From contig CALZMB010000001.1 of NCBI GenBank assembly GCA_945788485.1, positions 1 through 46,296 of the forward strand: a DNA stretch of 46,296 nucleotides, written 5' to 3'. The DNA comes from an uncultured bacterium (GTDB lineage Bacteria; Bacteroidota; Bacteroidia; Bacteroidales; Bacteroidaceae). The notes under the pieces were generated by a model that saw only the letters and a list, made by a program, of their open reading frames with translations, searched no databases and had not been told where the DNA came from. Each line of letters starts with the position of its first letter. Position 1 is the stretch's first letter. Shown here in pieces: positions 16,496 to 45,369 of the stretch. The position numbers were made by a program, and so were the translations under genes.

Positions 16496-16496
16496 A

Positions 16497-18659: not shown

Positions 18660-18664
18660 ATCCT

Positions 18665-20077: not shown

Positions 20078-20106
20078 ATTAATAATTTGTAAAGTAAACG
20101 CTACAA

Positions 20107-20125
20107 TCCTTGTCAGTGACAAGGA
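20107..20125. promoter_or_regulatory. Perfect 9-bp inverted repeat upstream of the kinase gene (operator-like)
   Basis: tccttgtca-g-tgacaagga, 30 nt upstream of the kinase ATG. Confidence 0.4.
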
Positions 20126-20244
20126 GTCAAGCCAGAAACGTATTGAGAACGATGTCTCATACACTGATTTCTGACCCAACTCCAAACTTCATCACTCAAG
20201 GATCTCACGTTGGAGACCCGTATTAATTCAAACATTTTCTGCCA

Positions 20245-20640: not shown

Positions 20641-20668
20641 AACAAATACGTTTTTGGTTTTATTGTTT

Positions 20669-21067: not shown

Positions 21068-21070
21068 AAG

Positions 21071-21994: not shown

Positions 21995-22026
21995 GTTTTC
22001 TTTCGTTTTTAATATTTAGGTAATTA

Positions 22027-25713: not shown

Positions 25714-25835
25714 TATTCAAAGTTGTTACGGCGGGTTCCGAAAATTTTCCACACATCAGATTAATTTAAGAGATAATTTCCAGAACCCACCTTACGATAA
25801 ACAGTCAGATACTACAAAACAAAAAATTCCTCGCC

Positions 25836-28486: not shown

Positions 28487-28487
28487 G

Positions 28488-29147
28488 TCACCCGAGTTTT
28501 GGAATTGCAATGAATAAGAATACTGTGCTTCCGAGGCGTATCAAGTCGTGGTTTTCCAATACACCTTCGTCAGAGAGTTCCTTGTTGACGAACGTGCCGT
28601 TGCTCGACTGTTCATCCTTGTATTTGAACTTGTTGTCAACATTACGGTAGAGGATGGACATGTGCTTTCCCGACATTTGGTTGTCTTCAGGAATGGCGAT
28701 GTCGCACGACCTGTCCCTGCCTATGAAATTCTTGCCCTCGTAGATATTGTATGCCTTGCCCAGCGGGTTTCGTGTGTATGTGATGAGGAAGCCTACAAGC
28801 TTTCTGCCTTGTGTGGCTGCCTGTCCCTGCGGCTGGCGTATGATTGTTTTCCCGCCTCCCATAGGCTGAGACTTCGGCTGCGGCTTCTGTCCTTTGATGA
28901 CAGTGTCGCCCGACGCGTCTATCTGCGGCGCACCGCCGAACACTGCTCCGCCTGGTGCCTGTTGCGGTGCTGCGGGTGTCGACACCATTGTGCCGCCAGC
29001 CTCTTGAGCATGCTGATATGGCGGCATACCGAAATTTGGTTGGTTGCTATATTGCGTCTCATTGCCACCCTTTGGGCAAAGAGGGCATTCGTCTCCATAG
29101 ATACTTGAATCGTAAATGTGTCCGTTCGGACAAACTTTCTTTGGCAT
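28488..29147 (-). CDS. Zinc-ribbon - disordered linker - FHA protein
   Basis: MPKKVCPNGHIY...ECPLCP; FHA FIGRDRSCDI...MSGKH...SSNGTFVN...IRLG. Likely start ATG 29147. Confidence 0.92.
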   Translation of the reverse strand: MPKKVCPNGHIYDSSIYGDECPLCPKGGNETQYSNQPNFGMPPYQHAQEAGGTMVSTPAAPQQAPGGAVFGGAPQIDASGDTVIKGQKPQPKSQPMGGGKTIIRQPQGQAATQGRKLVGFLITYTRNPLGKAYNIYEGKNFIGRDRSCDIAIPEDNQMSGKHMSILYRNVDNKFKYKDEQSSNGTFVNKELSDEGVLENHDLIRLGSTVFLFIAIPKLG

Positions 29148-29185
29148 AATGTTTATGTATTTTTTATGGTTATTGTTTTTTTTAT

Positions 29186-29268
29186 TTGACGAATTGACGA
29201 GTTGACAGTTTTTGAGTTTACAGTACACATAACTTTTCAACTCGTCAACTTTTCAACTCGTCAACTTT
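29186..29268. repeat. Octamer-unit direct and inverted repeats (ttgacgag / ctcgtcaa)
   Basis: ttgacgaa ttgacgag ttgacag ... aacttttcaactcgtc aacttttcaactcgtc aacttt; the left and right blocks are reverse complements. Confidence 0.75.
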
Positions 29269-29307
29269 AAGGAATCAACATGAAACATGTCGTTTTCTGT
29301 TTGTCAT

Positions 29308-30240
29308 TTATCCGAGAAACTCCTCACCGCCCATCATGTCGTCATACGAGCTGTCATCTTCTGCCTCAGCGGTGTAGCTGTCATCAACCGATTCTTCTTC
29401 TTCGTATGTCTCAGCGGTATCATAGTTGTCATAGTCTGCCTCGGCGCTGTAGTCGTGGTCTTCCTCATCATAGCTTTCGTTTTCAGCCAGATAGGATTTA
29501 TCACTGTAGTCAATATCCGCACGGGGATTATAGTCAGGATTGTTCTCGGCATAGTCGCCCTTGTATTCTTCTCCTGTCTTCTCGTCATCGAAGTTGTTGT
29601 GTATCGGGTCTTCGTTTCCCGGATCATAGCCCGGTGCCGGTTCTTCTACTACCTCGCCAGCCTCGTTAGTATAAAAATAGTGGTTGTCGGTCTCTGAAGT
29701 GGCGTGTCCCATGCGGATATTGTCCGATTCGCTGTAATATATCTTTTCGTTCTCCTCAAACACTCCGTTGTCATTAACATCAAGTCCCAGCACATCTGCC
29801 TTGCCGTCGCCATCGACATCGGCGAGGACGAAACGATGTCCATCATAAGTTCCTTCTTCTGTTGACGAGGCCAGTTCTCCATCGACATAGACGTTTGTCG
29901 TTTCATCCCATGTGACGGTAGGCTCTTCCGGCTCGACGGTTTTCGGCTCTTCCGGTCTGGTCTCCACATAGACGACTCTTTCTGTCACCGTCTCTTCCTG
30001 TGTCTCAACAGCCTCTTCCGAGCCTGCCTCAGCTCCGTTCAGCACGTCATCTGTTGTCAGCAGGTCGTTGTCTTCTTCTCCGGGTCTTGTGGCAGCGTAT
30101 GCCGCTCCACCTCCGAGCACTGCTCCTCCGGCTAATATTGCGGCTCCGGCCGCTACTCTTTTCGCCGTTGTGTTGTCGTTGGCACTAAGGTTCCCGTAGT
30201 CCTCTACGTTGAAATCCTGGTTTGTTCCGTTAGTCTTCAT
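29308..30240 (-). CDS. Highly acidic protein with a Gly/Ala-rich membrane segment and DxDxDG motifs
   Basis: RVAAGAAILAGGAVLGGGAAYAA; ADVDGDGKAD and LDVNDNGVFE; D/E/Y-rich tail. Confidence 0.8.
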   Translation of the reverse strand: MKTNGTNQDFNVEDYGNLSANDNTTAKRVAAGAAILAGGAVLGGGAAYAATRPGEEDNDLLTTDDVLNGAEAGSEEAVETQEETVTERVVYVETRPEEPKTVEPEEPTVTWDETTNVYVDGELASSTEEGTYDGHRFVLADVDGDGKADVLGLDVNDNGVFEENEKIYYSESDNIRMGHATSETDNHYFYTNEAGEVVEEPAPGYDPGNEDPIHNNFDDEKTGEEYKGDYAENNPDYNPRADIDYSDKSYLAENESYDEEDHDYSAEADYDNYDTAETYEEEESVDDSYTAEAEDDSSYDDMMGGEEFLG

Positions 30241-30322
30241 AATCAATGAGTTTTTTTAGAGGTTTTTATTATAGTTTCTGTTCTCATGATTTCAGGAGTG
30301 TTCCTTACTCTCTTTGATTGTA

Positions 30323-30350
30323 TAGACCCCGCTGAACGGAGTATCTTACG
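30323..30350 (-). promoter_or_regulatory. Candidate ECF-sigma promoter (CGTAAG-N17-GTCTA)
   Basis: Minus strand reads cgtaag atactccgttcagcggg gtcta, ~80 nt upstream of the acidic-protein gene. Confidence 0.45.
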
Positions 30351-30450
30351 CTTAGGGTAAAAGTTTTTTCATTTCACTCGAAAAAATGTTCCTTCAATTT
30401 CTTAGGCCGATGGTTCTTTTCATGTACCACATAACCTGTTTAAGCATTCT

Positions 30451-30897
30451 TCAGAACATTTTCATATACTCAGCCCTGCCCTTCATCTTCTGTGGTGTCA
30501 AAGCAAATTTCTTGACAGGCTGAGTGCCTTTCATGTCATAAATCTCGTACGTCAGAGGCTGGTTGAGCTCTACAAGACGCTTTATCATCATTGTGTCAAG
30601 GAGATGCAGATCGTTAAGCATCATGGACGGAAGCCATTTCAGCATCTCGGCATCTGTCAGCTGAGGGTCGTCTGTCAGAGCTCTGAGCGTGAGGATGACG
30701 GTCTTGCCGTCATACACGCATTTCTCCATTCCGAACGCCCCGTATTCTTTCGGCAACTGTGACGCAAACGTCTCCACTCTTGTGGCTATAACACTGTCTG
30801 TCTGTTGAGCGTCATCTGACACACTCTTCTGGTTTTTACCGCATCCGGCGCATAACAAAACCAAAAAAGCAGATAGGATAATGTGTTTCATGTTCAT
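30451..30897 (-). CDS. Lipoprotein, possible GspS/AspS-pilotin-like fold
   Basis: MKHIILSAFLVLLCAGC lipobox; FASQLPKEYG...CVYDGKTVILTL...LTYEIYDMKG...LTPQKM. Confidence 0.7.
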   Translation of the reverse strand: MNMKHIILSAFLVLLCAGCGKNQKSVSDDAQQTDSVIATRVETFASQLPKEYGAFGMEKCVYDGKTVILTLRALTDDPQLTDAEMLKWLPSMMLNDLHLLDTMMIKRLVELNQPLTYEIYDMKGTQPVKKFALTPQKMKGRAEYMKMF

Positions 30898-30935
30898 AGT
30901 GTTTTTAATGTGGTTATGTTCTGTTTTCAAGAATG

Positions 30936-32162
30936 CTATTTTGTTATCTTTATGATATACGTCTCGTCATTGCTGTCGTTTACGAGGGCATAATATCCCG
31001 GCGAGAGATATACGAACGAGATGCTGCTCACACCGTCTATGATGTCCGATGTCGATGGTTTTATGGCATTGTCGCTTCTTGTCTCCTGCGTGTAGCCCTG
31101 TGTTCTGTGGCCGTCTTCCATTGTCATGTTGTCAAGAGCGACAAGATGCCAGCTGCCTTTCAATTTCGCGCCCACAGTCTTGAACGTGATTGTTATGCCC
31201 TCAGGGAAAGGATACACCTTACGGTCGATGTAGAACGTGTTATCACCCTCTGTCTTTGTCTTTGCAGCAGGAATGCTGAACTCGTTGACATACATCTTTT
31301 CTTTCTCATATACGGCTTTTTTCTTCTCGACGTAAGTCGTCTGGTACTCCTCAATTTTCGATGACAGGATTTTTTCCTTCTTTCCGTTTCCGAGCATGAG
31401 CACGACATACTTGTCCTTGTCTCTCTTTCCGTAGTGCTGTGTGATGATGACACCCTCTTTCGTTGTTTTGTCCTTCATCACTATGACATTGGTGTATCCG
31501 GCCTGACTGCTGACAGTCATGCCTTTTTCCTTTGTCTCTTTCCTTATCTCGATGATGTCAGACATGTGTATCTCGTGTCTGCCGTCGCTTGTCTTTACAG
31601 TCAGTTTCACGCCTGGCACCTGCGAGACGATTGTTCCGGAGTATGTCTTTCCGTGCAGTGTGATGATAACATCATTCAAGCCTTTCTTTCTGATGTTGTC
31701 TGTCTGCTCTTTTTCTATCTTTGCGATATTCTTCCATTCGAGTTTGTATGTCTCTGGTTTAATTTGCATATAGACAGTCTTCGGACTTTCGTCTTGCTCT
31801 GTCTTCAGCAGATTACGGTGGTTGTGTGTCCTGGTCTTTATGTCATACAAGACGATGTAGCGTCCGTTGGCGTCGCCCTTCAGAGCCTTGTGTCCCAAAG
31901 CCCAGCGTTTCAGCTCTCTGTCGAGATTCTCGTACTTCGTCTTTTTCGGTGTGGATGAAATCAGTTGTGCATCGTCGATTACGAACGTGGCTTTCTCTGA
32001 TTTCACCGTTATATCCTTGTTCGGACGCTGCGATATGATTTTGCCAACGATTCTTGACCCGTTCTTCATTACGAACGTGGATTTCTCATCAGCGTATGCG
32101 GCTGAGACAACGATATTCAGCATTGTCAGCGCAAGGAGGGTTTTATTAAGGATTGTTTTCAT
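30936..32162 (-). CDS. Exported protein with three repeated small beta-barrel (Sm/SH3-like) modules
   Basis: Signal peptide; FVMKNGSRIVGKIISQ / IITLHGKTYSGTIVSQ / IVMKDKTTKEGVIITQ. ATG 32162 overlaps the M6 stop (ATGA). Confidence 0.75.
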   Translation of the reverse strand: MKTILNKTLLALTMLNIVVSAAYADEKSTFVMKNGSRIVGKIISQRPNKDITVKSEKATFVIDDAQLISSTPKKTKYENLDRELKRWALGHKALKGDANGRYIVLYDIKTRTHNHRNLLKTEQDESPKTVYMQIKPETYKLEWKNIAKIEKEQTDNIRKKGLNDVIITLHGKTYSGTIVSQVPGVKLTVKTSDGRHEIHMSDIIEIRKETKEKGMTVSSQAGYTNVIVMKDKTTKEGVIITQHYGKRDKDKYVVLMLGNGKKEKILSSKIEEYQTTYVEKKKAVYEKEKMYVNEFSIPAAKTKTEGDNTFYIDRKVYPFPEGITITFKTVGAKLKGSWHLVALDNMTMEDGHRTQGYTQETRSDNAIKPSTSDIIDGVSSISFVYLSPGYYALVNDSNDETYIIKITK

Positions 32163-34204
32163 TGTTGTATATACTTTTTTGTAGTGTTTCTGTTCTTTAT
32201 AATACAAAAGCCTTGTTGCATAGGGACTCTTCTTCTTCCATCTAAAGAATAAACCGCAGCATTACCGTCAGCTTCTTCTATGATTTCATCTATATCTGTG
32301 GCGTTTTCCACTTTAACAAAATCACTCCATTCAGAAGCGATACCATTTACGACTGAACGAATGCGGACATTTGTTGTCTCGGCATCTTCTATCAACCATT
32401 TCAGATTGACTTCTGTGCCAAAGATTCCCTCTTTCATCTCACTCTTCCTTATAAGTGTGAGATTGCTGCCTAATTTTACTGATGACTGTTCAATATCATA
32501 CGTTTTTGCTCCTATCACCTCATTCCATTTCACGGTGTAACCTTCATTGTCAATAGCAGAGACATGTAACGCTTCTGGGGCATAGATTTCATTGTCGAAA
32601 ATCACATCGAATGATACAGTGCCATCCTCATTCTCGGTTATGTTCCCGATAGCCCTGTTCATATTGAATGTCCAGTCAGTGTTCATGTTATACAGCCTCC
32701 CACCATTGTCTCTGTGAGACGTGTTTGTCAACCATTTGACATTTTTATTGCCGGGCCAGATGTCACCTCTCAGGTCGTTCTCTTTATTTCCATAACTGTT
32801 GTCAGCAGGAATGATAGTCATTCTCTGGTGATTAGGGGAGGGATTAACCTGGTTAGTATTCCAAGCTCTGGCATCAAAGTCCACATGTGTTATTATCATC
32901 CCATGAATATCATTATATGTATCAACATATTTGAACCAGCGTGATGACTGATGGTTTTCAATAAGATAATATTCGTTTCTGTTCCCTTCATTATATATTA
33001 TATATGCTTCAGGCGTGTCACCGAGGTTAGCCATATCGCATATTTTCTGCGTTCCTTTCAATTCTACAGGTTCCAGCCATCCTGCAATCCATCTCTCGTA
33101 TGCGGTGAATCCGTATGGCACCTCACCATATCCTTCTGGCCCGGCATATGAGCCAGAGTTCATTATGTCCCAGTAAGACATCCCGAAAGCGCCGCTATAA
33201 TCTGTATCATAGAAATCCGGAATTCCAAGACAATGGCAAAACTCATGACAAGGCGTGCCAATGCCTGACAGTCTTTTTCCGGAAAAGCCTATCAGTTCGC
33301 TTGAGCAGGCATAGGTGTTGACTGCAACACCATCCAAGGATATAGCATTTGACCCCAGCCAGCTTTCGTGCGGCCAAATGGTATTTGACGGTGCACCGTA
33401 ATGTTCGCCATACCCTGCATAGACAATAAACACCTGATCCACTTCACCGTCTCCATCCCAATCATAATCCTTGAAATTAACGTTGTCGTCAATCAAACGG
33501 CATGCTTCAATAACCATTTCAGGGACATTCTTATCTTTGCCAAACATTTCGGAGTTTCCTCCATAGTATTCATAGTTTCTTGACACTTTCACTGGACCTA
33601 TCACATCAAAATCCAGAATGAATTTCCCGTAACTCTGGTCATAGAAGTAATCGTGTACGGAACCTATGCTTCCATTGTCCGAATAGCCTTTTTCGTTGAA
33701 CAATCTGTTGAATTGAAATTGAGAATCTTTCAAAACCATAGATAAATTTGGGAAATCAACCAATATGACAAGACCTCGTTTATTTCCCGAATAATTACTA
33801 TATTGCCCTAAAGCTTGTGAAGACGAAATTTTATTTTTTCTCTGTAAATTACTATGGTCAAGTCCAAGTTTTTGTTTATTTCCGAGATATTTCCTAACAG
33901 AATCTATGTTATCATTAATAAACTTTGTTTCTTGATTTGTTCTATTTGTACAATTATGAGCAATGATTTTTGAAATGAGAAGGCTATCATTGTTAATAAA
34001 TCCATAATAATAACTATCTCCATAATTGAACACTGGTATATCATCATCTGTTACATAATAATGAACGTATTCATCTCCAAGTAATTTAATAGTTATTAGG
34101 CTTCCGTCTTCCTGTAAGATTGTTTTTTGGACTACTTTAGCAGGACTTGAAAATAAGACTAGATTATGGATTCCTAATAATAAAAATAAAAGAAGGCTTC
34201 TCAT
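32159..34204 (-). CDS. M6 family (immune inhibitor A-like) metalloprotease with T9SS CTD
   Basis: GLVILVDF, GSVHDYFYDQSYG, YAGYGE, IWPH, CHEFCHCLGIPDFYD (HExxH), WDIMNSGSY Met-turn, EYYLIEN; C-terminus VYSLDGRR...KKYI. Confidence 0.95.
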   Translation of the reverse strand: MRSLLLFLLLGIHNLVLFSSPAKVVQKTILQEDGSLITIKLLGDEYVHYYVTDDDIPVFNYGDSYYYGFINNDSLLISKIIAHNCTNRTNQETKFINDNIDSVRKYLGNKQKLGLDHSNLQRKNKISSSQALGQYSNYSGNKRGLVILVDFPNLSMVLKDSQFQFNRLFNEKGYSDNGSIGSVHDYFYDQSYGKFILDFDVIGPVKVSRNYEYYGGNSEMFGKDKNVPEMVIEACRLIDDNVNFKDYDWDGDGEVDQVFIVYAGYGEHYGAPSNTIWPHESWLGSNAISLDGVAVNTYACSSELIGFSGKRLSGIGTPCHEFCHCLGIPDFYDTDYSGAFGMSYWDIMNSGSYAGPEGYGEVPYGFTAYERWIAGWLEPVELKGTQKICDMANLGDTPEAYIIYNEGNRNEYYLIENHQSSRWFKYVDTYNDIHGMIITHVDFDARAWNTNQVNPSPNHQRMTIIPADNSYGNKENDLRGDIWPGNKNVKWLTNTSHRDNGGRLYNMNTDWTFNMNRAIGNITENEDGTVSFDVIFDNEIYAPEALHVSAIDNEGYTVKWNEVIGAKTYDIEQSSVKLGSNLTLIRKSEMKEGIFGTEVNLKWLIEDAETTNVRIRSVVNGIASEWSDFVKVENATDIDEIIEEADGNAAVYSLDGRRRVPMQQGFCIIKNRNTTKKYIQQ

Positions 34205-34218
34205 AAACTTCTATTTTA

Positions 34219-34249
34219 TTTCGGAATCTCCAAATTGGAGATTCCGAAA
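34219..34249. other. Perfect intra-operon hairpin (15-bp arms)
   Basis: tttcggaatctccaa-a-ttggagattccgaaa, 15 nt upstream of the M6 ATG; no U-tract on the coding strand. Confidence 0.8.
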
Positions 34250-34267
34250 ATTTTGTAGATGTCGAAT

Positions 34268-35677
34268 TCAATTATTTAAATATCCGCGATAAGTATGTGC
34301 ATTTTTTTTCATCTCTTTCACGTCAATTATTGTTATCGGGGATAATAATTGATAATATAATACAGCGGTCACATTTTCTGAATTTAATACCATTACACCT
34401 GTTCCATTTCCCACAAAATTGTAGATTCCTTTGGCTTCATTATATCCTTCATATGAATATTGCTCTTTTAGTGATGCCAAAATAGATTCAAGAGTGTAGC
34501 TTTGTGAAAACATCATAAGTAGCTGATTTAAATTTGTTTTATTTGTATCAAAATAGTACTTATAAAACACAGACTTTCTCTTATTATACCAACTTGATGT
34601 ATAAGCATTGCTTATTTCTTCTTCTTCAGAAAAATCCATAGCGGCATTATTCATATACGAATTCACAGTTTGAAGTGAGGCACCCCATTCCAAATATGGA
34701 TCAGCATATAATTTTATATTTAGGCCATTATACCATTCTTGAAAACTCAAATATGAATAATCATCAAATAATATACCTTCAATTTTACTTCCAGTATAAC
34801 ATATAGCTCCAAAGTATGATTTCCCATCTTCAACTTTTAGGTTATAGCCCGCATCTTTTGTCGGAGTGAATTTTGAATTATCTAGTTGTTCTGCAGTTTG
34901 AGCTCCAAATACACAATTCACGTCACCTTCTTCCAACAAATATGCAGTTCCGAATGCTTCATTAGGAAATTGATCAGATGATTTATAATATAGATAACCA
35001 CGTTCTGCCCATGTGTTCGGATTAAGATAATTCTTGTAGTAGAAACGATCTTCGCCTTTTTTTTCAGGAGATAAGTAACGACCATCAGGATGGTTTTTTG
35101 TATAGAATGATACGCATAAATAATTACTACAATCAAAATTTGCAGCAAGAAAGTCAACATACGCACCGATTGCATGTGGAGTTATATCAACCCTCTGATT
35201 TTTTCCATTAGCTATTTGGATGACATTTGTCGCAACACCCACTGCCGAATACCATGCAGAATAATATTTTCTTCGTGCTATTTGTATTGTTGAAAGTTTT
35301 TCTTGTCCAACAATAACAAAAGATTCGGAAATATTTCCTTCACTTTCCTTAACCATCATCTCAACGGATATAGCCGTATATTCACCTGCGGGTAAATATG
35401 AGAAATTTCTTTCTGTTTGTCCGAAAGTTTTAACAAACACACTATCTGAAGCAGCTAAGTTTCCATTATTGTCATATAAGAATGTCCATACTCCTATATT
35501 ATAATCTCCACTCAAGAAATTACCCTTAAACTGATCAGAAACACCAAATTCATCATAAACGGTCTGAGTAGAGACTGTATATGTTAAATCTCCATAGGCA
35601 ATCACCTCTATGTCGTCATTAGAACAAGAAGTGAGAATTCCGGCAAATGCCAAAATTATGTATATAATCTTTTTCAT
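34268..35677 (-). CDS. AT-rich surface lipoprotein of unknown function
   Basis: MKKIIYIILAFAGILTSC-SNDD: lipobox followed by an acidic Bacteroidetes lipoprotein-export-signal-like stretch. Confidence 0.8.
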   Translation of the reverse strand: MKKIIYIILAFAGILTSCSNDDIEVIAYGDLTYTVSTQTVYDEFGVSDQFKGNFLSGDYNIGVWTFLYDNNGNLAASDSVFVKTFGQTERNFSYLPAGEYTAISVEMMVKESEGNISESFVIVGQEKLSTIQIARRKYYSAWYSAVGVATNVIQIANGKNQRVDITPHAIGAYVDFLAANFDCSNYLCVSFYTKNHPDGRYLSPEKKGEDRFYYKNYLNPNTWAERGYLYYKSSDQFPNEAFGTAYLLEEGDVNCVFGAQTAEQLDNSKFTPTKDAGYNLKVEDGKSYFGAICYTGSKIEGILFDDYSYLSFQEWYNGLNIKLYADPYLEWGASLQTVNSYMNNAAMDFSEEEEISNAYTSSWYNKRKSVFYKYYFDTNKTNLNQLLMMFSQSYTLESILASLKEQYSYEGYNEAKGIYNFVGNGTGVMVLNSENVTAVLYYQLLSPITIIDVKEMKKNAHTYRGYLNN

Positions 35678-35696
35678 AACGTTTCTTTTTTATGCA

Positions 35697-36455
35697 TTAT
35701 TTCTTTTTTGTACCGATACATTTGAAGAGATATCCTATGGATATTTCAAGTGAGCTTACTTTAGCGGGGAAATTGCCAGCCAGCTCACTTGTCCCGAGGT
35801 AGTATCTCGCATTGGCATAGAAGCCGTCGTTTGCCGAGTTCTTGTTGAAGCGGTAGCCAAGGCCGACAGTCGCCTTTATGTCAAATCCCTTAAAGTCACC
35901 TGTTTTATATTCCATATAGTCGTATGACAACATATCCGGGCTTGAAGACATCGTCCCGGCTATTGTCGGACCTACCTCAATGTACAGGTTCTTCAGATGC
36001 TTTGTGTTGTAGCAGGGATAGAACTGGAGCATGATGGGCACTTCAAAGTATCCGAGCGTGAGATCGTCATCAGCCAGAGTTTTAACTGCATGCTGCTTGT
36101 AGTTAAGCTCCACTCCGATGCCGAACAGTCCCTGTCCGTCGAGCGGGCGGTTGCGGCTGTCCTTGCCGCCGAAACGGATATTGGCTGCTAAGCCGCCGCC
36201 GAAGGATATGCCGCTGCCATCGTAGATTTTCAGATCATCGCCCTCGCTCATCGTTGACACTCCGGCTCCGACACGCGGACCGACCGACAGCTCATAGTTG
36301 TAGTGTTTGCCCTTTACCTCAACATGTGTTGTCGTCTTCTTTCTGTTTTCAACTCTCTGTTTCTGTCCGAAACCGTCATCTTCTGTCACAATCTGTGCCT
36401 TTGCCGTCATGGCGACAGCAAGAAAAGACAGAATAAAGATTGATGTTTTTTTCAT
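35697..36455 (-). CDS. Outer-membrane beta-barrel protein (porin/PorT-like, OMP_b-brl_2)
   Basis: Signal peptide; VGPRVGAGVS, IGVELNYKQ, LGYFEVPIML, YIEVGP, VGLGYRF, NARYYLG, ISIGYLF. Confidence 0.88.
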   Translation of the reverse strand: MKKTSIFILSFLAVAMTAKAQIVTEDDGFGQKQRVENRKKTTTHVEVKGKHYNYELSVGPRVGAGVSTMSEGDDLKIYDGSGISFGGGLAANIRFGGKDSRNRPLDGQGLFGIGVELNYKQHAVKTLADDDLTLGYFEVPIMLQFYPCYNTKHLKNLYIEVGPTIAGTMSSSPDMLSYDYMEYKTGDFKGFDIKATVGLGYRFNKNSANDGFYANARYYLGTSELAGNFPAKVSSLEISIGYLFKCIGTKKK

Positions 36456-36505
36456 AAGGTATTGTTTTGTGTTAGTAAAATAAATAATTATCGCTGTCAT
36501 GATGT

Positions 36506-38014
36506 TCAGAACGGTTTCAGCTCGAGGCCGTTACGACGTGCTGACGTGCCGTCGGATGTAGATACAACGCACCATCCGTTAAGCTCTACATTCTTCACGA
36601 GGAACGAACTGTTTATCGAGTAGCTGCCTCTTGCGGGTATGGTGACAGTCTGTGTGATGTTTCTGAAATGTGCTTTCTGTCCTCCTCCCGAGAGTGTGAT
36701 GGTTGTTGTCACGGGTATTGGCGACGGGTTGCGTATAGTTGCCGTGACGAGGCAGCGGTCTTGCGGGTTGGCATCTGCATTAATGACACGTATGCTTGAC
36801 TTCAGTTTTGTCCTCTGCACGAAACTGAAGCTCTCGTTGCCCTGCCAGAGTTTTATGCCGTTGTTCTTCACCTCGACGTTGAATGTCTTCGTCTCTTTTG
36901 TCTGCGAGGCGTTCGGTGTGTATGCGAAGCTGTATCTGTTTCTGCCTGTCTTGCTTATTTCGAGCGCATTGCCGTTGTCCTGATCTTTCAGCGTGACCGT
37001 TATGCTCTCGTTTTTCCATTTCTCGGGCACAGAGAGTGTGAACTCGCACTGGCACGAGCCGCCTTCTGAGAAGATGTGTCTTGATTTCTCTGTGTGCGTA
37101 TAGAAGGTGGAGTTGTCTGCCACAATATGCAGCAGGCCGTATTTCCCGTCCATCATCGCCACTGCCGTCCCGTCTGAGAAATAATCTGCTTTCTCATATT
37201 GGAAAGGTGTGAGAAGTTTTCCCTTCTCCGAGATGTATGTCCACAGTCCGTTGCGTTCTTCAGGCATATACTCCATGTTTTTCTCCTGCTCGTATTTAGA
37301 GTATTCCACATCGTCTCCCAGCCCGCTTACACGGTAGAGATAATCTACGTCGAATGAGGTGGCGTTGCTTTTCATCTTCTCGATCCTGCCGTCGCCGTTC
37401 AGTACGAAAAGCACCTCTTCCTCATCCCATAGAATTGCCTTGCCGTTGTAGAAATTGGTGCCGCCGAATGGAGTGCCGCCGTTTTTCAGCTTAGGCAGAA
37501 TCTGTTCGCCCGATGTGTCAATCCAGTGGAAACTGTCTCCCTCACCGACAACGGCGAAGCCTTCGCTGAATGGACGTACAATGTCATCGGTGAAGCTCCA
37601 TGCCGGCTGGCATTTTTCGTCAAGGTATCCGTATCTGCCGTATTCGTCCTGCACGGTGATGAATCCCTCTGAGTAGAACATATATTCGGGTAGAAGATAG
37701 TATATGCCGTCGGTGTAGTGTACTGTGCCGTTTTCTTCCAGTACACCTTTCATCTGCCATTTGCCGTCTCTTTTGTTGACGAAGACTGTCTTGCCTTCAT
37801 AGAAATAGTTTATGGCATCATATACGGGTTGCAGGATGACTTTTCCGTTTGTGGAAATCATTCCGACCTTTCCGTTTTTCTTCACCTGATACATATTCGG
37901 TCCGAAATATTTTATTGACTGATATTCCGGAGCCACAAGCCAGTCAGCTGTTTGCGCTTTCGCCTCGGCGATGGCGAAGAGTGCCAAGAGCATTATGGAT
38001 AGAGTGCGTCTCAT
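36506..38014 (-). CDS. Exported WG-repeat protein with C-terminal Ig-like domains
   Basis: GKVGMISTNGKVILQPVYD, YSEGF..V...GRYGYLD, PFSEGFAVV, FSDGTAVAMMDGKYGLL. Confidence 0.9.
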   Translation of the reverse strand: MRRTLSIMLLALFAIAEAKAQTADWLVAPEYQSIKYFGPNMYQVKKNGKVGMISTNGKVILQPVYDAINYFYEGKTVFVNKRDGKWQMKGVLEENGTVHYTDGIYYLLPEYMFYSEGFITVQDEYGRYGYLDEKCQPAWSFTDDIVRPFSEGFAVVGEGDSFHWIDTSGEQILPKLKNGGTPFGGTNFYNGKAILWDEEEVLFVLNGDGRIEKMKSNATSFDVDYLYRVSGLGDDVEYSKYEQEKNMEYMPEERNGLWTYISEKGKLLTPFQYEKADYFSDGTAVAMMDGKYGLLHIVADNSTFYTHTEKSRHIFSEGGSCQCEFTLSVPEKWKNESITVTLKDQDNGNALEISKTGRNRYSFAYTPNASQTKETKTFNVEVKNNGIKLWQGNESFSFVQRTKLKSSIRVINADANPQDRCLVTATIRNPSPIPVTTTITLSGGGQKAHFRNITQTVTIPARGSYSINSSFLVKNVELNGWCVVSTSDGTSARRNGLELKPF

Positions 38015-38042
38015 AAGTAGTATAAGAATTGTGGTTTATTTG

Positions 38043-38657
38043 TCAGTTCACGACGGGCATGTCTTTTTCTTTCGACATGTCTTTCTTCTGAATTTCAGGC
38101 TCTACATCCTGTTTTTCATTATAGAGTTCCTGACGTTTTGTTTTCTTACGTCTGACGTTGGTTTTTCTGCTTTTTTTCTTTTTTGTCGCTCTCTTTGCTG
38201 TTTTTATTGACGATTCTACGGGTGCGTATTTGTCTGTAGAATCCCTGTTCCATTCTGTCTGTTCTTCCTCGGCAGCTACTGGTATTTCTGTCGTCTGTAC
38301 TTTATCGTCCTTATTGTTGAAGACAGACCATACCGCTATGCCTGCACACAACACGAGAAGCATGGCTGCAGCTGCAGCGGCACTTTTTCTCATTTTTGAA
38401 TACGGGTCTTTCAATGTGTTCCAGTCGAATTCCCATACGTCACCGAGTCTGATGCTGTCTTTTCTTGTCACAGGGAGCGATGTCCCTTTCAGCATTCTGT
38501 TTCCGTTGAGATAAGTCCCGTTGCTGCTTGTGTCGCTTACGGTCATCCTGCCCCAAAAACTGACGGATATGACGAGATGGTGCCGGCTCACCTTGTCAGT
38601 GCTGTCATTGATGACGATGTCACAGTCGTTGCCTCTGCCTACAATTATTCTTTTCAT
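38043..38657 (-). CDS. FHA-domain protein with a single TM helix
   Basis: IVGRGNDCDIVI...VSRHH...SSNGTYLNG...IRLG; TM AAAAAAMLLVLCAGIAVW. Confidence 0.95.
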   Translation of the reverse strand: MKRIIVGRGNDCDIVINDSTDKVSRHHLVISVSFWGRMTVSDTSSNGTYLNGNRMLKGTSLPVTRKDSIRLGDVWEFDWNTLKDPYSKMRKSAAAAAAMLLVLCAGIAVWSVFNNKDDKVQTTEIPVAAEEEQTEWNRDSTDKYAPVESSIKTAKRATKKKKSRKTNVRRKKTKRQELYNEKQDVEPEIQKKDMSKEKDMPVVN

Positions 38658-38684
38658 TGTCAGTGTGTTTTGTGAATGAGATGA

Positions 38685-39581
38685 TTACTGTTTTTTCATG
38701 AATCTTTTTCTCAGTTGCCGCGTGCTATTCCGTAATGCTTCTTTTGCCTTGTGCATGCAGCTGTACTGGTATTCGGAATCTTTCTTCATGTCTATCACAA
38801 TGGCGGTAAGGTTGTCATGGTCGCCGCCTTCTGCCCATCCAGCCTCATCTACTGTGTCTGTCAGGAACTGTACCTCGTCTTCGGGTTTGTCTTTCTCATT
38901 GAAGAGGGCGAGCATCTCGTTCTCCGGCTTCACGTTCCAAATGCCGTCACAGCAGAGTATGAACCTGTCGCCCTTCCTGTATGGTATCTTCTCAACGGTC
39001 ACCTCTATTGTGTTGCGTATTCCGAGAGCGCGCGTGATGATGTTCGAGAAGCTCGATTGGCGGGCCTGCTCCTCAGTCATTAAACCTTGTGCTACCATCT
39101 CGAAGACTTTCGAGTGGTCGAATGTGCGGAAGATTTTCTTTCCCCTGCGCAGCTGGTAAATCCTGCTGTCTCCGACGTGTGTCAGATAGGCGCATCTGGC
39201 AGTGATGACGAGTATTGTTGCCGTTGTGCCCATTCCTCTGAGAGGTGGCTCTTCGTATGCGCGCTGGTAAATGGCGTCATTGGCGGCTGAGACGGCGGCT
39301 GAGACGGCGGCATCGCTGAATTCTCCTTCTGTCTTCGTCTTCAGTGTCTTCAATATTTCCGCCACAGCGATATGCGATGCTGTCTGTCCTCCTGCCATGC
39401 CTCCCATGCCGTCGCACACTGTAAGCAGCACGGCTGAGGGTGTTGATGTGCCTCCGTAGCAATCTTGGTTCTCTTTCCTGCCTCCTACACCTGTCCTGCC
39501 CCATGCCTCGCATATATCATTGTTGACGATAAGTTTCCGTTCGTCAAGTCTTGTGACATTTATTTTTTCTAAGTTACTCAT
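38685..39581 (-). CDS. Soluble PP2C phosphatase
   Basis: GGRKENQD, VCDGMGG, GMGTT, HVGDSR, LCCDG, HDNLT; no TM segment. Likely start ATG 39581. Confidence 0.95.
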   Translation of the reverse strand: MSNLEKINVTRLDERKLIVNNDICEAWGRTGVGGRKENQDCYGGTSTPSAVLLTVCDGMGGMAGGQTASHIAVAEILKTLKTKTEGEFSDAAVSAAVSAANDAIYQRAYEEPPLRGMGTTATILVITARCAYLTHVGDSRIYQLRRGKKIFRTFDHSKVFEMVAQGLMTEEQARQSSFSNIITRALGIRNTIEVTVEKIPYRKGDRFILCCDGIWNVKPENEMLALFNEKDKPEDEVQFLTDTVDEAGWAEGGDHDNLTAIVIDMKKDSEYQYSCMHKAKEALRNSTRQLRKRFMKKQ

Positions 39582-39613
39582 GATAAGATAGAGTTTTTTT
39601 ATTTGATATAGTG

Positions 39614-41179
39614 TCAATATTTGCGCAAGAGCGCAGAGATTTTGTTGACATATACGGGGTCTTCTGCCTCAGAGGCATATTTGTATGCCTTGTCGAGCAG
39701 ATCTTTCGCATATCTCAGGTTGCGGGCTTCTCCTCCTGTCAGGTTCGGGCCTTCGTAATAGTTGCAAGCAAGTTCGTAGAGGGCAGGGTAATAGTTCGGT
39801 TTCGTTTCTGCTATCTGTGTCAGAATTTTGTGTGCCTTTGCAGGGTCTGGGGACACTGTGCCTTCGAGATTTGCCTGCATGGTGACATATTCGTCTCCGA
39901 GCGTGAACGAGCCTGATGAGATGGCATACAGACGGCTCATGACGAATAGTGCCTCTATGTCTCCGCTTTCCGCCTCTGCCGTCAGGTTTTCAAAGCCTTT
40001 CTTCGCCTCGCTCGGATTGAGCATCTGGCGACGGATTGCGGGCATCTCGTTTATTGACGGGGTAGCTTCTGTTTCTTTTTGGACGATTGTCTGTTCTTCA
40101 TGGGTTTTATCTTTGCTTGATGATATGAGTTTCGTAATGAAGACAGCCATGCAGACCAACAGTGTGATAGAGACGACAACGGTGCCTGCCACAGCGGCGA
40201 ATTTCGCTAATGTCATGCCAAAGATATATGTAGTGTTGTCAGTGCCTGCAAGGCTGTCGAGTTCAGCCCTGAAGAGTGCGGCGCTCTGGTATCGTTTGGT
40301 GCAGTCTTTCTCTGTCGCTTTGGCGATTATTCTCCTGAGTCTCGGGTTTCTGATTTGCTTCAAAGGCATGTCAGAGCGCAGATGTGCGTTGAGCACGACA
40401 TTGGCTGGTCCCTCAAACGGCAGGTGTCCTGTTGTCAGCTGGAATAGCAGGACACCGATGGCATAGATGTCGGTAGGCTTGTTCTGGTTTTTGATATCTC
40501 CGATGATAAGCTCCGGCGCGGCATACTGCGGCTTGCCCATGAACTGTCCGGCTGTCGTGAGGTTGCGGTCGTGGGTCTTAAGACCGTCAACTTGTTTCGC
40601 TATGCCGAAATCTATGAGCTTTATCTTCCCGTCTCTTGTGATCATGATGTTCGAGGGGTCGATGTCACGGTGTATGTACCCGGCATCATGCAATGCCATG
40701 ATACCTGACAGGATTTTCTTCGTCACGGTGACAGCGAACTGCTCCGGATCATTGTTATACATATTGTATAACATCTGTGCGAATGGCACGATGTTGCCGT
40801 CCCTGTCTGTCAGTATGCCCTGCAGCAGGTCTGAGAGTGAGACACCCATCAGCAGTTCGCTGACTACATGATGTCTGACTGACACCATGCCGTCTGCCAT
40901 ACGTGTTTCGACAGAGAGAAATCCCATCATCTCCACAAGGTTGTCGTGCATGATGCGTATGTTCGCCTCGTTCTCCGCTCTTTGTATCACGTTTTGCGGC
41001 AGTCCGGAATACAAGAACTTTATTGCTACCTCGCGTGTCTCATGCGTATGGACATTGATGCGCTTTCCGCGATACACCTTGCCCATACCGCCTTCTCCAA
41101 GCAGTTTGGATGATGTGTCGAATTCGTAGTATATGCCAACCTGTTTCTCTTTTTCTCCTTGTAGTTTTATCTTTGCCAT
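39614..41179 (-). CDS. Membrane Ser/Thr kinase (HRDIDPSN variant) with Sel1-like extracytoplasmic repeats
   Basis: LGEGGMGKV, VAIK, HRDIDPSN, DFG, YAAPE; TM; AESGDIEALFVMSRLY and ALYELACNYYEG...RNLRYAKDLLDKA. Start ATG 41179 (MAKIKLQG). Confidence 0.95.
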   Translation of the reverse strand: MAKIKLQGEKEKQVGIYYEFDTSSKLLGEGGMGKVYRGKRINVHTHETREVAIKFLYSGLPQNVIQRAENEANIRIMHDNLVEMMGFLSVETRMADGMVSVRHHVVSELLMGVSLSDLLQGILTDRDGNIVPFAQMLYNMYNNDPEQFAVTVTKKILSGIMALHDAGYIHRDIDPSNIMITRDGKIKLIDFGIAKQVDGLKTHDRNLTTAGQFMGKPQYAAPELIIGDIKNQNKPTDIYAIGVLLFQLTTGHLPFEGPANVVLNAHLRSDMPLKQIRNPRLRRIIAKATEKDCTKRYQSAALFRAELDSLAGTDNTTYIFGMTLAKFAAVAGTVVVSITLLVCMAVFITKLISSSKDKTHEEQTIVQKETEATPSINEMPAIRRQMLNPSEAKKGFENLTAEAESGDIEALFVMSRLYAISSGSFTLGDEYVTMQANLEGTVSPDPAKAHKILTQIAETKPNYYPALYELACNYYEGPNLTGGEARNLRYAKDLLDKAYKYASEAEDPVYVNKISALLRKY

Positions 41180-41222
41180 TATTTTAATGATGTGTGTTAT
41201 TCTTTTCTGTCTTTCTGTTAGT

Positions 41223-41942
41223 CTAATACAACACCGTACGTGAAGCACCGTCTTGAGTTGCTGTCGGCGAATAGAAATCGTTGGACATGACAGGCGTATC
41301 TGCCGGCGCATATCCGTCCTTTATCCCCGTAGCTGCCTGCATGTCTTCAAATTCTTCGTCTTCCGCCAGTCCTGCAGATTCAGCGTTGAACATCTTGACG
41401 ATGAACCTGTAGTGTTTTCCGATTTGTATTATGTCGTTCTCTTTCACGCCAAGCTCTTCGTAACGGCCGTCTTCGCCGTTCACCGTCGTGCCGTAATCCG
41501 AAGCATAGTCTGTAATGGTTATGATATATCCCGCCGACGTATCATACTCTTTCTGTATGTTCAACACGGCATGTTCTGCAGATACTGTGAATTCTTTCAG
41601 ACACACATCGCATCTGTCAGTATGGCCTATGATGTTGCGTCCGAGGTACAGCGGGAAAATTTCTCCCAAAAGTCCTCGCGATATTGAAAACAACACTCCG
41701 ACCACCACACGGTTCTGCATGGCGACGATACGTTGTCCTTCGCTTTGCGCCATTTGAGGCATGACCGCACCTTGCTGTTGCGCAGCAACGGGAGTTGTCT
41801 CGGCAATGCCGCTTCCAGGCACAAAAGTACGTTTCGTGTCGAACGATTCGCGAGCATAGAGGTTGCTGTATATTTCAGAAATATTGTCGTCGGCGACGTT
41901 TCCGTAATCGACGCCCGGTACGACAGTCTTGTTTTGTGACAT
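41223..41942 (-). CDS. FHA-domain protein (degenerate pThr pocket) with disordered flanks
   Basis: VVGVLFSISRGLLGEIFPLYLGRNIIGH...VSAEHA...SDYGTTVNG...IQIG; paralog of the FHA at 28488. Confidence 0.88.
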   Translation of the reverse strand: MSQNKTVVPGVDYGNVADDNISEIYSNLYARESFDTKRTFVPGSGIAETTPVAAQQQGAVMPQMAQSEGQRIVAMQNRVVVGVLFSISRGLLGEIFPLYLGRNIIGHTDRCDVCLKEFTVSAEHAVLNIQKEYDTSAGYIITITDYASDYGTTVNGEDGRYEELGVKENDIIQIGKHYRFIVKMFNAESAGLAEDEEFEDMQAATGIKDGYAPADTPVMSNDFYSPTATQDGASRTVLY

Positions 41943-42042
41943 GGCTAAATTATAAATTGTCGATTAATTACTAAGCAGGCAGTGCAAGGATTATAGAATA
42001 ATTATGCACACCTGCTTATGTCATGACATCCGTCGCGTTGTT

Positions 42043-42663
42043 TCATGCCATTCTGAAGACAAGCATGGTATTCCCCATTTGCACTTTGTCGCCTGTCTTC
42101 AGGTTGCATGCCTTGCCTGGAGCTATTGGCACACCGTTTACGACGACCGGATTGTTTGCCTTGACTGATGTTATTTGATACACTACCTGACCGTTTATCT
42201 GCACTGTGCGCATCCCTGCATGCAGACGGCTCATTGCGATGTCTGGTGTCAGCTGTATCTGCGCCTTGCTGTCAGAACTTCTTCTGCCGAGGTCGAACGA
42301 TTTTCCGTGCGGAAGTCTCAACACTCCGTAGTTCTGCCCGTTGAATGTGACGGTAAACTCTCCGTTTGTCTTCATCTGCAAAGAAGATACGAGCTTTGTC
42401 TTGCCATAGTTTTCATCCATACCGGAATTGTTGTTGTTCTGAAGGTTTTCCACTATTTGCGTCTCGTTGTTTGCTACAACACCTGCACTTGTGATGTCGG
42501 CATGTGTCGGAGCCTGCGGCTGCACAGGCTGGTTCTTTTTTTCCTGTTCGCTCAACAATACATTGAACGGTATGGAGAATGAACATTTCGGACAACGGAA
42601 AATCTCGGGCGGACGGCGTTGGAGATTGAATCTCCTGCCGCATTCTGGACACTGTATTATCAT
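42043..42663 (-). CDS. Zinc-ribbon (MJ0042-like) - linker - FHA protein
   Basis: MIIQCPECGRRF...FRCPKC; LGRRSS...MSRLHA...VVVNG...LKTGDKVQMG. Confidence 0.9.
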   Translation of the reverse strand: MIIQCPECGRRFNLQRRPPEIFRCPKCSFSIPFNVLLSEQEKKNQPVQPQAPTHADITSAGVVANNETQIVENLQNNNNSGMDENYGKTKLVSSLQMKTNGEFTVTFNGQNYGVLRLPHGKSFDLGRRSSDSKAQIQLTPDIAMSRLHAGMRTVQINGQVVYQITSVKANNPVVVNGVPIAPGKACNLKTGDKVQMGNTMLVFRMA

Positions 42664-42687
42664 AGATATTATGTTTTGGTTTGTTTC

Positions 42688-43449
42688 TTATTTCACATAT
42701 ACAACTACCATGCTGTCGTCAAACTTTCCCCACATCTGCGGATGTTGTTTGCCGCCAGTGTCTTTTATGACATGCGGGTTGACATAATTGAACAGCTCGC
42801 GGGCTGTAACTTTCTTGTCACCATTTTTGTCAGCATAACCTCTGAAACCCTCAAGGATTCTGCTTATAAAATACGAGTTGCGCATGTTTGGATGCTCCCA
42901 TGACACTTCAGTTGAACGGCTTGACGTGTAGAGCATCACACTCGTCTTGTTTGTCTTGCGGCGCTGCGTGTTGCCGTTATTTTGTTTTTTCTTCTGCAGA
43001 TTCAGTCCTCCGGAATAACATGCCATGGCAAGAATAATCTTGCGGCGCGCCTTGGCGCTCTTCATTATCTCCTGTATTTCATTGTATGTGATGATGCTGT
43101 TTTCGTCTTTCGTCTCATAACATGTCAGGCCGCCCTGCAGACCATGCCCACTAAACACAAAGATAATCTCGTCGTTGACTGTCGATTTGGCGAATTCCTT
43201 GCGCATCACTTTCAGAATATGGCTCTTCGTCGCATTCTCGTTCAGAAGCATGAAAACCCTGCTTCCGTTATAGTCGTGGAAGAAATGTGAAACGGCACGC
43301 GCATCGGCAACGGAACATGGCAGTGGAGGTGCTACCTCTGGATATTTGTATTCACCCAACCCTATCGATACCACATATGTCTTCTGAGCATAAGACACGC
43401 CGCAACATAATACGAATGTAAATAAAATAGAAAATAAATACCTTTTCAT
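42688..43449 (-). CDS. Exported caspase-family (peptidase C14) protease
   Basis: Signal peptide ending VSYA|Q; LLNENATK, FVFSGHG (His), IILAMACYSG (Cys), ADKNGDKKVTARELFNYV, QHPQMWG. Confidence 0.92.
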   Translation of the reverse strand: MKRYLFSILFTFVLCCGVSYAQKTYVVSIGLGEYKYPEVAPPLPCSVADARAVSHFFHDYNGSRVFMLLNENATKSHILKVMRKEFAKSTVNDEIIFVFSGHGLQGGLTCYETKDENSIITYNEIQEIMKSAKARRKIILAMACYSGGLNLQKKKQNNGNTQRRKTNKTSVMLYTSSRSTEVSWEHPNMRNSYFISRILEGFRGYADKNGDKKVTARELFNYVNPHVIKDTGGKQHPQMWGKFDDSMVVVYVK

Positions 43450-43489
43450 ATTTCAACTCTGTTTTTATTTGTCCTGTATTTATAGAACT

Positions 43490-44173
43490 TTATTTTCCTG
43501 TAAACTTACACTTGCAGCTGCTGTTCGGGCATTTTCCTTCAGCAAGGATGTTCTCGTAGAGTTTAATGCCGAAATGATATCCGCATTTCGGACAACAGTA
43601 TTTACGCTTGAAATAACGTTCGTTCTGGTCCTTGCGCTTTATCAGCGACTTGCTTTTAATGTCAACAATCACCCATGCTATCGCCACGGCTAATACTGTT
43701 CCTGACGCCTTAATGATGGTGCCGACATTCTCGTCTCCGATAAAGTCATTCGGGATGAGCATTGACATTATGAGACCGAGGAAACCGCCGAGCGACATTG
43801 ATGCCATACGTATCATCATGATGTTCGACTGTTTCATGTCCAGATCCATCTTGTTCCGGTTATAAGCCTCGTAAATCATTTTCAGCCCGCTTATATCAAC
43901 TGCCTCAGGTTCCTTTATGACAATCAGCTCTTTTATAAAAAAGGTGAATTTTGCACCAAGACGCACTTTAGTGTTCAGCGTGACAGGAACTTCTTTCGTC
44001 AAACGTAAAAACTTGTTGTTTTGAAGAATGTATGTCCCGTTGGTCGAATTGTTGTCACGAAGAAACATCTTTCCTGATTTTTCATCCATAGTGAAAACAG
44101 CGTGTTGGCGGCTGATACTTGTTTCGGTCAACGGGAAAGGCTGACTGCCTGTCTTTCCTATAATAATTTCCAT
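43490..44173 (-). CDS. FHA - 2 TM - zinc-ribbon membrane protein
   Basis: IIIGK...ISRQHA...STNGTYI...VRLG; two TM helices; YCCPKC...KCPNSSC. Confidence 0.92.
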   Translation of the reverse strand: MEIIIGKTGSQPFPLTETSISRQHAVFTMDEKSGKMFLRDNNSTNGTYILQNNKFLRLTKEVPVTLNTKVRLGAKFTFFIKELIVIKEPEAVDISGLKMIYEAYNRNKMDLDMKQSNIMMIRMASMSLGGFLGLIMSMLIPNDFIGDENVGTIIKASGTVLAVAIAWVIVDIKSKSLIKRKDQNERYFKRKYCCPKCGYHFGIKLYENILAEGKCPNSSCKCKFTGK

Positions 44174-44211: not shown

Positions 44212-44760
44212 TCATATTATCTCTATAAGATAATCGCTCGGCACGAAATCTATTGACACGGCAGCGATGTCTTCGAGTTGAACGACGACATGTTTGTTTC
44301 CGTTTATGCGTTTTATCACTCCCTCAACTCCAGAAAAAGGACCCTCACATATTCTAACTCTCCTTCCTACACTGCTTATGTATTCATTCATCTGAAGATA
44401 TGTCATGCCACAATCTACATATTCCGCAACACGCATGAAATTTTGCATCGGACGCTCGCCTACAGTCATTATTACATCTGCGGCATCACCGGCTCCATGT
44501 CTCATCATATATCTCATAGGAGCGAAATTCTTGTCATACATCTTATGCTCAGTTATGGTTCTCTGACTTGACTTTATGAATATGATATTATGGATAGCAG
44601 GAACAAGCATCTTTCGACGATTCCATCCCTTGCCAACATAACAGTATCTCATAGGGAGATAGTTTTCAATTCCTATCTCATCCAAATACATCTTCATCTT
44701 CAACTCTCGGTTGTAGGTCACACGCATCGGAAACCAATGTATTTCATCAGGATTTGTCAT
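44212..44760 (-). CDS. upxY: UpxY-family (NusG paralog) transcription antiterminator
   Basis: HWFPMRVTYNRE...IENYLPM...LVPAIHNIIFI (NGN domain); GRRVRICEGPFSGVEGVIKRINGNKHVVV (KOW). Likely start ATG 44760. Confidence 0.93.
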   Translation of the reverse strand: MTNPDEIHWFPMRVTYNRELKMKMYLDEIGIENYLPMRYCYVGKGWNRRKMLVPAIHNIIFIKSSQRTITEHKMYDKNFAPMRYMMRHGAGDAADVIMTVGERPMQNFMRVAEYVDCGMTYLQMNEYISSVGRRVRICEGPFSGVEGVIKRINGNKHVVVQLEDIAAVSIDFVPSDYLIEII

Positions 44761-44910
44761 CTCTTCAACAAAACATACGAGAGGGGGACACCACACCTAA
44801 TATTTGGCATGGAGAAAAATAAAATAAGTAGATTTACTTGTCATTAGTTTGATAAAGGCCTGATGTCCAGAAACCTGTGTTTTATAAACAAACCGACAAT
44901 GAGAAAACAT

Positions 44911-45210
44911 AAAAAAAGCGTGGAAACCTTTGTTGCCTGTTCCACAGTCTGAGGTTCTTGCACTACCTATCTAAGTCGAACAGACAACGTCAGAGCCCAC
45001 GCCGATATGATTATCCGCCGTAATGAGACCTACATAAACATCTGCATTGCACCTGTGAGGATGCAATCCGTGCTTACAAGGTCTCAACGGGCAGGTTAAA
45101 ACACACCCGGAGCATCTACCGTTGCTACGTCGAGACTTAGATACTGAGAATTTGCAAGATTTCAGACTGTCTCAAACACAGCGTCGAGTAAACGCCTTTA
45201 TTATGTCTTG
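44911..45210 (-). promoter_or_regulatory. Structured 5' leader / attenuator-like RNA element upstream of upxY
   Basis: Stem gcgtgg (44918-23) / ccacgc (44997-45002) followed by U7 on the coding strand; long-range complementarity of 44944-44977 with 45134-45170; internal hairpin 45024-31 / 45079-86. Confidence 0.7.
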
Positions 45211-45361
45211 ACTTTATCCCACCCATATTCCGCATTGAGCGACAATTGCATGTGTGATGCATGGTGTACACTCTCTGCACGGCGTGAGCTTCTTGCTGCA
45301 ATCGCAACTTTACAATAAACGTTGACGAAAGACTGTCAAGCAAGACTTCTAAAGTCCGATG

Positions 45362-45369
45362 CAAAAATA
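45362..45369 (-). promoter_or_regulatory. Candidate Bacteroidetes -7 promoter element for the long operon
   Basis: Minus strand TATTTTTG(CA) matches TAnnTTTG, within an AT-rich region; no clean -33 TTTG seen. Confidence 0.5.

Follow-up and report, generated by a model that had tools for sequence, protein, structure and literature searches.

A widespread, covarying RNA leader of Bacteroidales as a probable transcription attenuator

By analogy, the nearest known system to the leader described here appears to be the zipper-type attenuator cATT of pLS20, the logic of which was demonstrated experimentally according to the available part of PMC13401043. In pT181-type attenuators and the CopA-CopT pair of R1, kissing hairpins proceed to extended pairing via a four-way junction, and in the pT181 type masking of a 5' hairpin allows termination (PMC4878617, in the sections available). 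For the guanidine-IV riboswitch, the accessible portion of PMC11611296 describes a leader that contains both a terminator and a kissing loop. Finally, the opsX leaders of Bacteroides are regulatory leaders located before upxY genes, with a pause element of about 40 bp and a short pause hairpin (PMC11685472, in the part available).

The locus considered here also contains a leader before a upxY gene. It is located in a 46,296-nt window, which is the whole stretch of DNA analysed, where an upxY-headed operon on the minus strand is preceded by a non-coding leader of approximately 600 nt. An initial annotation proposed that part of this leader acts as a switch with mutually exclusive terminator and antiterminator folds, possibly together with UpxY. 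The element in question is a genuine RNA leader that is widespread and covaries strongly but has not been catalogued. No description of it was found in the literature: it is absent from the available text of PMC5737381, PMC8040213 and an S. copri preprint, and from eight supplement files of PMC8040213, while the supplements of PMC5737381, of PMC8040213 (files 7 and 8) and of the preprint may list part of it.

Layout of the leader

A promoter-like box of the form TAnnTTTG, which we take to be the Bacteroidota −7 promoter consensus, is found at 45362..45369 on the minus strand, as are the leader features below, and also occurs upstream of homologues. Transcription probably starts near 45357, about 600 nt before the ATG. 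Such a box lies within 260 nt upstream in 78 of 90 homologues, compared to 7 expected by shuffling. A similar −7 box is printed in the available part of the S. copri preprint. Between the promoter and an FGE-sulfatase gene lies a purine-rich low-complexity tract (45537-45725, GA repeats on the plus strand).

Two short boxes precede the first large hairpin. Segment 0 (45280..45290) is an 11-bp complement of the outer 5' arm of the terminator-like hairpin (45004-44994) and thus a predicted antiterminator box. Its other partner, a GGGUGGG box at 45218..45224 that is kept in A1, is paired with segment 0 in the folds of the window and is a predicted anti-antiterminator. The 5' hairpin D5 (45111..45196) is supported by the RNAalifold consensus and by stem covariation. 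It consists of a base stem, a conserved internal loop with a CAAC toehold (45125-45120), an upper stem, and a large loop carrying the codes a (45170-45162), b (45159-45153) and c (45142-45135). Code b is displayed in a 7-nt loop of the U-turn type (45152..45158; YUNR, as in anticodon loops), recognised by its sequence pattern across the alignment rows: YU is present in 63 of 69, the full YUNR in 59 of 69, and A as the sixth base in 68 of 69. The U-turn motif is known for its role in fast RNA pairing, and the pattern suggests such a role for the code-b loop. D5 is followed by a variable middle hairpin (45010..45110) with the core GAGACCU 45085-45079 / AGGUCUC 45031-45025, which is reduced to 0-5 nt in minimal forms (e.g., L204, L232 and L244).

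The terminator-like hairpin D3 (44917..45004) comprises an outer stem, an internal loop, an 11-bp inner stem, and a coded loop. The latter contains c' (44976-44969), a mini-stem AGGU/ACCU around b' (44962-44956), and a' (44952-44944). A U7 tract follows at 44911..44917, and at least six T are present in the 8 nt past the D3 stem in 63 of 69 homologues. The RNAalifold consensus fold consists of D5 and of D3 with the mini-stem in its loop. D3 is atypical as an intrinsic terminator, having a split stem and a 35-nt loop, and a simple terminator scan does not call it.

All pairings listed in the initial annotation are present in the sequence. The outer stem (44918-23 / 44997-45002) is paired at six of six positions, and the inner stem of 11 bp contains, as read on the transcribed minus strand, one G.U pair and a C.A mismatch at its end. 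The match between the loop and an upstream segment (44968-77 / 45134-43) is complete at 10 of 10 positions, the proposed pairing of 44944-62 with 45153-70 resolves into two helices of 9 and 7 bp around an internal loop, and CAACG/CGTTG (5 of 5), the separate middle hairpin stem (8 of 8) and the U7 at 44917-44911 on the transcribed strand are likewise in place. That the upstream partner segment itself forms the loop of D5, a conserved hairpin, had been missed, as had the mini-hairpins contained in both the D5 and D3 loops, segment 0, which lies outside the annotated coordinates, and its GGGUGGG competitor. The 311-nt region folds beyond chance, given a z of −6.4 against 100 dinucleotide shuffles, none of which is as stable; the whole leader reaches a z of −5.1. 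An RNA-run contig of a relative spans the leader and upxY; DNA carry-over is possible there, and such contigs show neither ends, strand, nor level.

Distribution and the loop code

Of 400 genomes of the genus, 163 contain the element according to BLAST, the one named relative being a Prevotella MAG. A covariance model of the D3 domain matched 97 of 150 family genomes, where a single genome can carry as many as 17 copies, as well as 21 of 150 order genomes, some of them weakly, and 2 of 150 genomes in a phylum-wide draw, both from the same order. An independent model of the D5 domain matches just upstream at the same loci, resulting in 95 joint rows. About 3800 matching stretches are estimated in a metagenome collection from a pattern scan. 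The element ranges from 150 to 450 nt, with minimal forms of approximately 150-180 nt that have no middle hairpin, and behind 81 of 96 element pairings the same strand carries an ORF of 90 aa or more. The window's own genome holds a second, partial copy of the D3 domain with a different code, cut by the contig start (G000:C81:43-151, L216). At L206:1501-1891, two minimal elements with unlike codes stand in tandem before one gene. No match was obtained in plasmid and phage collections. Among 22 pattern-matching IMG/VR contigs, 11 carry the element (L050, L053-L055, L058, L064, L065, L068-L071), either as prophage cargo or in flanking host DNA.

The Rfam 15 covariance models, applied with gathering and E-value thresholds, gave no match in the window, and no family was found on the element in 40 further homologue loci. 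Assignment to any Rfam 15 family, including riboswitches, T-boxes and the Weinberg motifs, was rejected on the basis of gathering scores. The Rfam motif DUF805b occurs at L202:1617-1648 and 2182-2213 and at L200:2389-2423, where it immediately follows a minimal element and also stands behind downstream genes; it was not found in 20 further loci.

The loops of D5 and D3 pair via three hypervariable helices, a, b and c, which together comprise about 25 bp. Cognate loop duplexes average −34.9 kcal/mol compared with −16.5 kcal/mol for non-cognate ones (77 distinct D3 loops), and the cognate partner ranks first for 67 of the 77. Among 46 paralogues in seven genomes, 45 find their best partner within the genome in their own element. 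The exception is L221 (G519:C16), whose D5 is identical and whose middle is nearly identical to that of L222 (G519:C27), with a mismatched D3 code. L221 is a chimeric copy, predicted to be OFF, that arose from recombination between copies or from misassembly. Selection for orthogonality within genomes is not supported, as non-cognate pairing averages −12.4 within and −11.7 between genomes; the distinct codes may be drift.

Covariation was assessed by a G-test with APC against 30 tree-based null alignments, using 69 of the 95 rows; the 26 rows left out are gappy and mostly minimal forms. Ten pairs exceed every null value, namely four in helix a, three in helix b, two in the D5 stem (37:74 and 32:79), and one in the D3 stem, the stem values being biased upward because the alignments were fitted to models that contain the stems, from which the loop-loop pairs are absent. 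Helix c reaches an E of 0.07 and the D3 mini-stem an E of 2. In the D3 stem, 99.3% of cells are paired, six pairs show two-sided changes, and none of 500 shuffles reaches its score. The mini-stem shows a C-G/U-A exchange in 9 of 69 rows. The stems contain 399 G.U compared with 14 A.C, which points to RNA on the transcribed strand. According to the alignment columns, helices a and c and the stems of D5 and D3 meet without unpaired bases, a geometry corresponding to a four-way junction, and conserved A-rich linkers and the GG(C/U)...(G/A)CC mini-stem surround the sequence-free helices. The alternative folds put forward in the initial annotation are supported, with both stems and loop-loop helices above the tree-based null, and the two states are computed to lie within about 1-2 kcal/mol of each other in the window copy.

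Competing folds and their interpretation

The outer 5' arm of D3 is the target of two antiterminator solutions. In long forms it is matched by segment 0, with a z below −2.5 in 36 of 84 homologues; segment 0 and the outer arm change in step in L258, L260, L261, L262, L240, L195, L122 and L077, and a G-box follows segment 0 in 31 of 37 copies. In minimal forms, the same arm is matched by the 3' tail of D5 itself. The exchange of CAAC:GTTG, in which the D5 bulge pairs with the inner arm, remains paired in 58 of 60 to 67 of 67 rows, and the upper arm exchange is paired in only 54-60 of 68-69 rows. Covariation of these arm-exchange pairs, which extend the loop-loop helices into a rod, is not significant (best E about 35), as the pairs are either too invariant or too loose.

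The folds were compared with an equilibrium, pseudoknot-free model without kinetics. In the window copy, the ensemble energies are −164.2 kcal/mol for the terminator, −164.8 for the rod and −161.8 for the segment-0 state, the rod being the computed minimum-energy fold of the leader. Folding of successive prefixes passes from D5 to the segment-0 pairing and then to the rod once b' has emerged. The rod is favoured in 91 of 94 copies with a median lead of 10.3 kcal/mol, a comparison in which the L206 row mis-pairs the two tandem copies. The computed terminator probability exceeds 0.5 in none of 84 free leaders and in 39 of 84 when the D5 loop is forced to be unpaired; for the window copy, it rises from 0.10 to 0.95 upon masking, and 45 of the 84 copies fail to flip.

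The element possesses the characteristic parts of an attenuator: it is located between a promoter and the first gene, it has a conserved hairpin followed by a U-tract, and a competing antiterminator overlaps the stem. The leader is probably a cis-acting transcription attenuator in which D5 and D3, with their matching loops, would refold into one long read-through rod unless D5 is held shut. The equilibrium folds suggest a default-ON device, which would be closed by masking or holding of D5 or by a fast polymerase. D5 would fold first and display code b in its U-turn loop. As the 5' arm of D3 emerges, it would be captured by segment 0 in long forms or by the 3' tail of D5 in minimal forms. Subsequently, b would kiss b', and a and c would zip through the flush four-way junction. 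The CAAC toehold would then take the inner arm, leaving the terminator unable to close and allowing RNA polymerase to enter the operon. If D5 is masked or stabilised by a protein or an RNA, or if the polymerase outruns the zipping, local D3 formation with U7 is expected to cause termination near 44911.

Searches for a trigger yielded no candidate. A ribosome-mediated leader-peptide attenuator was rejected, since none of 34 leaders examined shares a conserved short ORF over the switch, frames and stops being different or absent. A pT181-type antisense attenuator was likewise rejected, as an antisense promoter box is present in only 5 of 96 copies; other promoter types are possible. A second match to the loops was not found in the window's own genome (79% complete). 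Sensing of tRNA, brought to mind by the anticodon-like 7-nt loop (NGC in 56 of 69 rows), was considered as well; cis pairing accounts for the covariation. A more far-reaching version of the attenuator, thought rather unlikely, is a new class of RNA sensor, in which an antisense-target pair resides in one transcript and the three-helix kiss and an immobile four-way junction would sense one shared signal. An RNA-binding protein, a nucleotide messenger or attack by phages could provide this signal, which would tie together the expression of as many as 17 surface and defence loci in a genome. On this view, keys could be exchanged when copies recombine, leaving an operon locked off, to which the chimeric L221 points.

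It is unlikely, on the present data, that the element instead adopts one static tertiary fold, an immobile four-way junction of both stems, a and c with b and the mini-stem as its cap, and serves not as a two-state switch but as a released ncRNA or as an RNA cofactor in processive antitermination. Such a fold would fit the flush meeting of a, c and both stems, all of which covary in one alignment, unlike the arm-exchange pairs. What it leaves unexplained is that segment 0 and the tail of minimal forms specifically sequester the outer arm, and that changes are matched there outside the stem of the terminator; the U-tract that follows in 63 of 69 homologues also argues against it.

Genes behind the element

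The first gene of the window's operon encodes a upxY-family NusG paralogue of 182 aa (44212..44760, minus strand; NCBIfam NF033644 with 123.9 bits at a cut-off of 100, and Pfam NusG and KOW). According to domain annotation, it is followed by a co-oriented run of genes of more than 30 kb (11645..44173, minus strand), which is likely the regulated unit. This run includes FHA proteins, four Ser/Thr kinases, one of them with RHS repeats, three PP2C phosphatases and a caspase-like protein, in addition to an M6 peptidase, WG repeats, DUF805, an ECF sigma factor, surface genes and several unknown proteins. Judging from these domains, it looks like a signalling or conflict island.

Elsewhere, the first downstream genes are diverse. 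The scan covered 76 of 81 called first proteins, omitting the window's own, near-duplicates, and one containing X. Ten are NusG/UpxY-like, five are glycosyltransferases, four are BspA-type LRR proteins, several are Ig-like, BACON or TonB surface proteins, four are defence-like (SNF2/ResIII twice, Z1 and DUF2971), and 35 have no Pfam family. This variety, with LRR, Ig-like, glycosyltransferase, SNF2/ResIII, Z1 and UpxY proteins and no metabolic theme, makes it quite unlikely that the leader is a riboswitch of the guanidine-IV type, in which a small molecule or ion would stabilise a, b, c and the D3 mini-stem during transcription and block the terminator. The kissing loop of guanidine-IV itself is proposed to form with its ligand and to promote read-through (PMC11611296, in the portion available), and the conserved linkers and mini-stem around sequence-free helices speak in its favour; a loop-loop duplex of about −35 kcal/mol would hardly need a ligand. 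A mobile or recombining DNA cassette, an inverted repeat bringing a promoter and a leaky terminator, whose pairing would merely reflect its origin, is very improbable: up to 17 copies per genome, the tandem copies of L206 and the chimeric L221 are in line with it, but the strong one-strand bias of G.U over A.C, the constant orientation from the promoter towards a gene, paralogues that differ in code instead of being identical, and the lack of plasmid or phage matches contradict it.

The suggested cooperation with UpxY is only partly right. The window copy precedes upxY, and at least 12 element-upxY neighbours were noted by eye among the matches listed. An obligate link was ruled out, with 10 of 76 first genes being NusG-like and the 29 upxY loci that are closest within the family all lacking the element. 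A GGTGTCC-type box lies just before upxY and downstream of the terminator-like hairpin (44783..44792, minus strand). Of 40 upxY loci, which include L282-L310 and the window, 23 show the motif GGTG(T/A)CC a short way ahead of the NusG domain, whether the leader element is present or absent, and it may serve the UpxY proteins of this clade as an ops-like loading site. UpxY and the leader element look like separate layers, with UpxY as the second, because none of the 29 loci has the element and the separate box lies downstream; where present, UpxY would load further downstream. The UpxY proteins of L002, L004, L005, L025, L028 and L047 form an element-linked group; they measure 226-260 aa, and a long extension precedes their NusG domain at the N-terminus.

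If the leader is an attenuator, the operons for surface, polysaccharide and defence functions and those led by UpxY are subject, in dominant gut and rumen bacteria, to a layer of regulation that has been missing so far. In the family genomes sampled, the uncatalogued leader is present in about two thirds, frequently in multiple copies. The alignment already supplies compensatory pairs, so that the trigger of such an attenuator would be open to direct tests. Dozens of natural, non-cross-reacting codes also bear on the difficulty of engineering orthogonal attenuators, which is raised in the available sections of PMC4878617.

Comparison with known systems

The similarities to cATT are extensive. 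In both cases, a long leader precedes an antitermination gene, and an upstream stem-loop, a central stem and a terminator zip into a rod. Antitermination is the default and upstream masking leads to termination, the logic being computed only for the element (PMC13401043, in the part available). In cATT, the 3' stem of the weak SL-2 pairs with the terminator, whereas D5 is a large covarying hairpin that pairs loop to loop. The central stem of cATT is essential, while the corresponding spacer of the element can shrink to 0-5 nt, and the element, unlike cATT, has a second antiterminator box and three coded helices. cATT precedes conAn1 and a conjugation operon on Gram-positive plasmids, as described in the same part of the source; the element is multi-copy in Bacteroidales genomes, precedes diverse genes and has no plasmid match.

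With pT181-type attenuators and CopA-CopT, the element shares kissing hairpins that are predicted to progress to extended pairing via a four-way junction, and termination upon masking of the 5' hairpin, which for the element is a prediction. Their partner is a separate antisense RNA, while that of the element is the terminator hairpin in cis, and its kiss is predicted to prevent termination (PMC4878617, in the sections available). As in the guanidine-IV riboswitch, read-through would be favoured by loop kissing within a leader that holds a terminator; guanidine-IV has one short kiss (PMC11611296, in the portion available), compared to three helices of about 25 bp, no Rfam match and no ligand-related regulon here. 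For opsX, the available part of PMC11685472 describes no termination, and the element, at 150-450 nt, is far longer and mostly precedes genes other than upxY. The element would thus act like known attenuators, yet it lacks the specific features by which each of them is defined. What is new in it is the three-helix code, the U-turn loop, the flush four-way junction, and the many copies per genome.
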